NCBI RefSeq assembly: GCF_048403405.1
Contig: NZ_CP183129.1
From: Escherichia coli
GTDB taxonomy: Bacteria > Pseudomonadota > Gammaproteobacteria > Enterobacterales > Enterobacteriaceae
Strand: one strand, 5' to 3'
DNA: 64,000 nt
In this document: in pieces, positions 57,546 to 58,550 of the stretch
Layout: each line of letters starts with the position of its first letter
Numbering within the stretch: the first letter of the stretch is position 1
The notes under the pieces: model-generated
Databases searched by the model: none
The model's input: only the letters and a program-made list of their open reading frames with translations
What the model was told of the DNA's origin: nothing
Made by a program: the position numbers and the translations under genes

Positions 57546-57579
57546 TAAAAAGCGCCATCTTACGATGGCGCGGCTGGAA

Positions 57580-58248: not shown

Positions 58249-58550
58249 GAATAGTTTCCTGAGATGATTATATTACTTTCTAAGTTATAGCAAAAAGCGC
58301 CGCTTCGTGTTGTGGCAAAAAAAGTGTTGGTGAAAATAAATTTTTTAGCCCCTTTTCAGACGACATAGTCAATGCCGAAAAAGGGGCTAAGTCAATCATC
58401 AGTAGTTAAATTTCAGTAAGTTAAGCGGCTAAAAAACTTCGACTACTGTGATTGATTTCACATCCCTTCGATAAAAAATATGCTTACCGAAAAGAAGAAC
58501 AGTAAACCATCTCAGCGTGGGGAATTTTCACGCGCTTTGTTCTTACCGGA

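Follow-up and report, generated by a model that had tools for sequence, protein, structure and literature searches.

A stem-loop downstream of tehB as the probable protective 3′ end of the tehAB message in Escherichia coli

Stable stem-loops without U-rich tails form a described class of RNA 3′ ends: transcripts end immediately after the stem-loop, which protects them against 3′-5′ exonucleases, and the sequence downstream is mildly enriched in C over G (Dar & Sorek 2018, PMC6061677). Such protective structures are found on Rho-dependent transcripts. A canonical intrinsic terminator consists of a GC-rich stem-loop on the sense strand after the gene and of a U-rich tract (about 5 or more U in 8 nt) adjoining the stem, and a bidirectional terminator stands between convergent genes, with an A-tract 5′ and a U-tract 3′ of its stem. 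REP/BIME elements are intergenic palindromes able to act as 3′ stabilisers of mRNA; they share a consensus sequence and are dispersed in hundreds of copies.

The tehB-ydcL spacer of E. coli contains a conspicuous inverted repeat, which we studied in a 64-kb window (the whole stretch of DNA analysed, to which positions refer unless marked K-12). We regard this repeat as the 3′-terminal protective stem-loop of the tehAB mRNA, a reading that we hold with a probability of about 0.65. The features of the locus are as follows.

60241 to 59141, minus strand: tehA (open reading frame).
59144 to 58551, minus strand: tehB coding sequence, tellurite methyltransferase (open reading frame and annotation of the K-12 homologue).
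58391 to 58550, minus strand: tehB 3′ untranslated region upstream of the hairpin, with three more predicted hairpins (fold of the spacer).
58345 to 58390, minus strand: predicted stem-loop UUAGCCCCUUUUU-CGGCAU-UGACU-AUGUCG-UCU-GAAAAGGGGCUAA (fold, -24.4 kcal/mol), corresponding to K-12 1,502,315-1,502,360.
58378 to 58390, minus strand: 5′ arm of the basal helix, UUAGCCCCUUUUU (fold and inverted repeat).
58345 to 58357, minus strand: 3′ arm of the basal helix, GAAAAGGGGCUAA (fold, inverted repeat and alignment).
58361 to 58377, minus strand: apical extension, CGGCAU (58377-58372) with AUGUCG (58366-58361) and the loop UGACU (58371-58367) (fold).
58333 to 58344, minus strand: A/U-only tail AAAAUUUAUUUU directly past the stem (U-tract scoring; 58342 is the published K-12 3′ end).
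58301 to 58332, minus strand: C-rich, G-poor stretch CACCAACACUUUUUUUGCCACAACACGAAG, a candidate Rho-loading region (base composition).
58283 to 58294, minus strand: core TTTGCTATAACT of a putative ydcL promoter (TGn-TATAAC, extended -10-like), downstream of the hairpin and separate from it (alignment).
58248 to 57580, minus strand: ydcL coding sequence, DUF3313 lipoprotein, the co-directional gene that follows tehB (open reading frame and K-12 annotation).

From the tehB stop codon to the start of the hairpin there are 161 nt, and from its end to the ydcL ATG there are 97 nt. Gene order is identical in the K-12 record, where the spacer carries no annotated feature. The sequence-only reading had argued from the plus strand; because the window encodes tehA, tehB and ydcL on its minus strand, that was the wrong strand, and the relevant one is opposite to the one described.

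The inverted repeat itself is real and lies far above chance. Its arms, TTAGCCCCTTTT (58345-58356) and AAAAGGGGCTAA (58379-58390), are complementary at 12 of 12 positions and are separated by 22 nt, so the stem of 11-12 bp and the loop of 21 nt proposed earlier were essentially right, with 12 bp and 22 nt as the measured values. The core pattern AGCCCCTTTT-N(10-30)-AAAAGGGGCT has a single match in the window, against 0.00 expected from 100 shuffles. Folded as RNA, the 46 nt give z = -7.0 on the minus strand and z = -4.2 on the plus strand. The best local structure of the tehB-ydcL spacer is the repeat hairpin, at -26.2 kcal/mol compared with -15.8 +/- 2.8 for shuffled sequence, and none of 200 dinucleotide shuffles of the spacer reaches that value. 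Most E. coli, K-12 among them, have CTGA in place of CTAA in the outer part of the 3′ arm, which reduces the DNA repeat to 11 of 12; the odd position is a U.G wobble in the tehB-sense RNA. Covariance models from Rfam assigned the region to no family, the best overlap being a Tetrahymena snoRNA model at 17.8 bits (gathering score 70, E = 0.71).

A T-run before the repeat and an A-run after it had been described on the plus strand. The former exists (T6 at 58341-58346); the latter does not, as the bases that follow the repeat are GTCAATCATC. The A-run of this locus (58378-58382) and the T-run that matches it (58353-58356) form the inner ends of the arms, and the perfect palindrome makes these runs innermost on both strands.

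On the tehB-sense RNA, the predicted hairpin is bulged and has about 18 bp: a basal helix of 12 bp, a U.G pair and an apical helix of 6 bp, with the 3-nt bulge UCU at 58360-58358. The antisense RNA folds at -18.2 kcal/mol, compared with -24.4 for the sense RNA, because the G.U pairs of the sense fold turn into C.A mismatches on the antisense strand. The apical helix contains such a G.U pair and is thus restricted to minus-strand RNA. E. coli proper and Escherichia sp. MOD1-EC7003 (L001) are the only ones whose sense fold is better than the antisense, by 6-9 kcal/mol; the two folds are about equal in the other Escherichia species, so the argument from strand is suggestive, not decisive. This apical pairing is confined to E. 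coli proper, the apex being paired in other ways in the remaining Escherichia species.

The 302-nt spacer is unusually structured as a whole (fold z = -6.1). Next to the hairpin on its upstream side, a long imperfect AU-rich palindrome (AAUCAAUCACAGUAGU ... ACUACUGAUGAUUGA) occupies 58392-58459 of the minus strand in the tehB 3′ untranslated region; together with two more hairpins it gives the spacer its high degree of structure. This palindrome is deleted in Escherichia sp. MOD1-EC7003. None of the other spacer hairpins has a proximal U-tract.

An RNA 3′ end has been published at the hairpin. A re-analysis of SEnd-seq data from K-12 MG1655 (Adv Sci 2023, PMC10667835) gives, on the 'RNase II ends in WT' sheet of its Supporting Table 3, a + strand 3′ end at 1,502,363 with the location 'tehB<->ydcL, UTR'. 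The share of ends at this position is 0.361 in the wild type and falls to 0 when rnb is deleted (log2FC 6.13, FDR 0.0041), and ends that are commoner in the wild type are, by the definition used there, stops of exonuclease trimming (PMC10667835). Among the rows listed, it is the sole entry for 1,502,0xx-1,502,5xx. The K-12 hairpin ends at 1,502,360, so the published end lies 3 nt past the last paired base in the tehB-sense direction, at window position 58342. As it depends on RNase II, this end is not a primary termination product. The in-vivo support consists of this single listed row of one re-analysis; among the rows listed there, the hairpin end has no PNPase entry and the region has no transcription start site (TSS) or RppH entry (PMC10667835). 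Neither tehB nor ydcL has an entry in the portions of the Adams 2021 tables covered or in the TERMITe tables, probably because tehAB is weakly expressed. The sequence-only reading had called the function of the repeat unexplained and had proposed the mapping of RNA ends, naming transcripts that terminate elsewhere as the contrary result. The K-12 dataset instead places an RNase II-dependent, tehB-sense 3′ end 3 nt beyond the hairpin.

What follows the stem does not resemble an intrinsic terminator. The bases past it are AAAAUUUAUUUUCACC: the first 8 nt contain 3 U, four A's come first, and all of the 12 nt after the stem are A or U. The GC-rich stem-loop on the sense strand after the gene is there; the adjoining U-rich tract is not, and a hairpin followed by AAAAUUUAUUUU is therefore not a canonical intrinsic terminator. 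The earlier statement to this effect thus holds on the strand that is transcribed. A U-tract score (the decaying d'Aubenton-Carafa weighting) is 0.49-0.63 for this hairpin, compared with 4.5 for the canonical terminator of ydcL, and a consensus terminator scan did not report it. The ydcL terminator served as the internal comparison; it lies right after the ydcL stop codon (57552-57571, minus strand) and has an 8-bp GC stem, GCGCCATCGTAAGATGGCGC-TTTTTATTAT. The two have in common a GC-rich sense hairpin past a stop codon, and other genera have a true terminator at the corresponding place after tehB. They differ in that the tehB hairpin has no adjoining U-tract and carries its U- and A-runs within the helix instead of flanking it. 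The hairpin is not a bidirectional terminator either, as the genes are co-directional and the runs are inside the stem.

Downstream of the tail, the base composition changes. The only part of the spacer with a clear excess of C over G starts directly past the hairpin, with 9-11 C and 3-4 G per 40 nt between 58350 and 58301; this bias is mild. Within it, the stretch CACCAACACUUUUUUUGCCACAACACGAAG is a candidate rut site only, proposed from its composition. It overlaps a conserved block upstream of ydcL (GCCACAACAC = 58316-58307). The order before ydcL is the block TTTTTGCCACAACA, about 20 nt, and then TTTGCTATAACT (58283-58323, minus strand); the GCCACAACA part of the block is retained by some genera only. 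Across 20 aligned sequences (9 named genera and two unclassified Enterobacteriaceae) the TTTGCTATAACT core hardly varies, and it looks like an extended -10 promoter. In genomic SELEX, an RpoS-holoenzyme peak was found in the tehB>ydcL spacer (PMC5493296). The hairpin stands just upstream of the conserved ydcL block and outside it, a position that fits with ending tehAB transcripts ahead of an independent ydcL promoter. In most genera, the ydcL leader also carries a short palindrome (TGCA...TGCA), which is replaced in Escherichia.

These observations suggest the following model. The minus-strand transcript of tehAB would fold, about 160 nt beyond the stop codon of tehB, into the bulged hairpin of about 18 bp. 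Transcripts that run beyond the hairpin would be trimmed from the 3′ end by RNase II, which would stall about 3 nt short of the stem base, thereby setting the mature 3′ end and protecting the message. The operon would thus end just upstream of the separate ydcL promoter. Because no U-tract adjoins the stem, release of the polymerase probably takes place further downstream, with Rho as the likeliest agent and the C-rich, G-poor region as its target. The structure of the hairpin, its place, strand and conservation and the RNase II-dependent 3′ end in K-12 are shown, whereas we infer a causal role of the hairpin in the RNase II stop, the assignment of the ends to tehAB transcripts and the release of the polymerase by Rho. 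We are confident, short of certainty, that the hairpin is the end-defining, exonuclease-stopping stem-loop of tehB-sense transcripts; for polymerase release by Rho the odds are roughly even. A literature search on tehB with terminator or bicyclomycin returned nothing relevant for E. coli, including bicyclomycin or rho-mutant data for the locus.

The hairpin shares every feature of the protective stem-loop class that was checked, namely the lack of a U-rich tail, a precise 3′ end (in one dataset) that lies a few nt past the stem and depends on a 3′-5′ exonuclease, and a mild excess of C over G downstream. It is an unannotated but ordinary member of the class. It differs from the type in that its Rho dependence is presumed and in the form of its stem: typical terminator stems are shorter than this bulged 12 + 6 bp, and the inner half of the tehAB stem is a U5:A4G run.

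The hairpin is conserved throughout E. coli. Of 5,426 complete genomes, 5,412 have the 302-nt spacer and 5,406 have a 66-nt region around the hairpin, the latter always with at least 95% identity. Searched with this 66-nt query (E <= 10), a genome has a median of 1 and a maximum of 3 places, and with a median of one place per genome the hairpin is not a dispersed repeat. A search with tehB yielded six further Escherichia lineages, and the hairpin occurs in every one of them: E. albertii, E. whittamii and four others, which are Escherichia isolates or divergent genomes filed under E. coli. Conservation across E. coli genomes had been proposed as a check on the repeat, and it bears out the repeat, which about 5,400 of 5,426 E. 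coli genomes and all the Escherichia species sampled possess. Among the 10 distinct Escherichia sequences aligned, all keep the core GCCCCUUUU, and the pairing GCCCCUUUU/AAAAGGGGC hardly changes. Variation is found in the outer pairs, which include one double change from U-A to C-G and several U.G wobbles. Altogether 90.5% of alignment cells are paired and 2 pairs show double changes; the covariation is within the shuffle control and is not significant because 10 distinct sequences are too shallow a set. Escherichia sp. MOD1-EC7003 has lost about 128 nt of the tehB 3′ untranslated region, and this hairpin is the only one left. The E. albertii hairpin is unexceptional when compared with shuffles of its own spacer, 21 of 200 of which fold as low.

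Two strains show changes within the spacer. E. coli FCI1 (L084, NZ_CM172811.1) has a 36-nt insertion in the 5′ arm of the hairpin, made of partial duplications of GCCCCTTTTTCGGCA(TTGACTATGTC), which could reflect replication slippage at the palindrome or an assembly artefact. In E. coli E66 (L087, NZ_CM173951.1), IS1 copies lie about 54 nt past tehB, so that only the first 54 nt of the spacer remain beside the gene.

Other genera lack the sequence of the Escherichia hairpin. Among the 21 non-Escherichia loci in which ydcL directly follows tehB, most have a different hairpin upstream of a conserved block that precedes ydcL, ending about 80-130 nt before the ydcL ATG, or about 200 nt in Atlantibacter; four Buttiauxella loci with spacers of 600-800 nt were left out of this positional comparison. 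A normal T-run follows the hairpin in Trabulsiella, Yokenella, Pseudocitrobacter and Atlantibacter. The Kluyvera hairpin has a partial T-rich tail, and a normal T-run is lacking in Citrobacter, in Salmonella arizonae and diarizonae, in Intestinirhabdus and in the unclassified isolate RIT691. In about half of the genera, the hairpin exceeds shuffles of its own spacer. A hairpin that ends transcripts would be expected to hold its position while its sequence changes, and this is the pattern seen. Hairpins after tehB where the downstream neighbour is a gene other than ydcL made an uninformative comparison, because the DNA downstream of tehB at those loci is, as we take it, mostly coding.

The main rival to a protective stem-loop is a weak, non-canonical intrinsic terminator, with release of the polymerase in AAAAUUUAUUUU 5-12 nt past the stem, followed by the trimming of a few nt by RNase II. 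The base of the stem is GC-rich, the next 12 nt are all A or U, and several other genera have a true hairpin and T-run at the same position. Among the rows listed, 254 RNase II trimming starts are found less than 10 nt downstream of a stop, and for 182 of these the distance is 3-5 nt (PMC10667835); as RNase II often removes only 3-5 nt, the same data would also agree with polymerase release at the U's close by. Against this stand the four A's that precede the U's, with 3 U in the first 8 nt, a U-tract score of 0.49-0.63 compared with 4.5 for ydcL, and the silence of the consensus scan, and we consider it unlikely. A more doubtful variant is an 'inside-out' terminator, in which U- and A-runs buried in the stem let a hairpin stop or insulate transcription without an adjacent U-tract. 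It could work by hairpin-driven release over an all-A/U hybrid or as a regulated barrier to tehAB read-through into the RpoS-dependent ydcL promoter. At K-12 1,861,655 on the minus strand, the 3′ end of yeaC maps by a hairpin of similar design (CAUCCCCUUUUU...GAAGGGGAUAG), with a U-run within the stem and no U-tail (portions of the Adams 2021 tables); this case hints that the architecture may recur.

The remaining explanations place the repeat outside the tehAB message, or give it no function, and we hold all of them to be improbable. The sequence-only reading had suggested the remnant of a small element, and a relic of a mobile or repeated palindrome (REP- or MITE-like), or a functionless neutral palindrome, would agree with a hairpin sequence limited to Escherichia, with an Escherichia spacer about 140 nt longer than that of Salmonella or Citrobacter, and with the plasticity of the spacer in E. 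coli FCI1 (a 36-nt internal duplication) and E. coli E66 (IS1). Many copies would mark REP/BIME or MITE-like palindromes, but the median is 1 place across 5,406 genomes, the window holds one copy, Rfam matches no family, the hairpin is retained beside the 128-nt deletion of MOD1-EC7003 and an RNA 3′ end maps to it. The hairpin shares with REP/BIME elements what an intergenic palindrome may do as a 3′ stabiliser and differs from them in being single-copy, and the suggestion of a remnant finds no support; we give a relic or neutral palindrome very little weight. Slightly less credible is that the hairpin belongs to a separate small RNA or a long ydcL leader. The whole spacer is unusually structured, TTGACT hexamers occur just upstream of the hairpin and within it, and the SEnd-seq table is silent on transcript starts, so the ends could belong to a short RNA begun inside the spacer. 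A predicted small RNA, Ssr15, has moreover been placed in the same intergenic region of Shigella flexneri 2a 301, the SF1779/tehB spacer, at 1,817,490-1,817,786 (PMC4782007). Ssr15, however, is on the opposite strand, spans the whole spacer, comes from a promoter-plus-terminator prediction and is not marked as validated, and RT-PCR did not confirm it (PMC4782007). As read from the sequence, neither TTGACT is followed by a convincing -10 element, the putative ydcL promoter core and the RpoS SELEX peak are downstream of the hairpin, and the lack of a TSS or RppH entry among the rows listed in PMC10667835 also speaks against a separate RNA. The least credible is a DNA palindrome that binds a regulator of ydcL (or tehAB) and has no role as RNA; a protein-binding site had been the other suggestion of the sequence-only reading, and it too finds no support. 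The repeat is about 85-130 bp upstream of the likely ydcL start, its loop CATTGACTAT and the upstream ATTGACT are invariant in the aligned Escherichia sequences, and ydcL expression responds both to a rob deletion and to the RpoS holoenzyme (RpoS: PMC5493296). Arms of 12 bp with a 22-bp gap are atypical of such sites, however, and in most E. coli the DNA repeat is imperfect exactly where the RNA has its U.G wobble. The 10 invariant columns are unremarkable when 66% of columns are invariant, and the cross-genus ydcL block ends downstream of the hairpin, with unrelated hairpins in other genera. Because ydcL expression is lower in the rob deletion, a Mar/Sox/Rob box was searched for; no marbox-like site with at most 3 mismatches occurs in 58249-58400, and the window-wide count is at the chance level.

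Two other candidates in the spacer were set aside. An attenuator-like switch was considered between 58423-58439 (AAGCGGCTAAAAAACTT, a near-copy of the arm) and 58338-58354, which are 88% complementary over 17 nt, and was judged to be due to chance. This pairing is found only in the window strain: all 6 other E. coli examined, including K-12, read AGCAGC at the site, and other Escherichia species diverge more. A 39-codon open reading frame across the hairpin (58399 to 58280, minus strand) was rejected as a small protein. It has no Shine-Dalgarno sequence, its start codon is lost in 3 of 6 non-coli Escherichia (L002, L003 and L005), and its frame is shifted in an O145 strain. On the plus strand, opposite tehB, 58457-58533 contains a promoter-like TTCACA-16-TATGCT and a terminator-like hairpin (GCGTGGGGAATTTTCACGC and GCTTTGTTCT); this is the strand for which Ssr15 was predicted in the corresponding Shigella spacer.

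With a protective stem-loop after tehB, the tehAB operon would gain a defined 3′ end and a conspicuous palindrome would be explained. The locus would also be one more documented example of the 3′ stem-loops that stop exonucleases without a U-tract. Its position carries a hairpin in many enterobacteria even though the sequence turns over. Beyond annotation the finding has little importance; only the unproven 'inside-out' terminator, if true, would be of wider interest.
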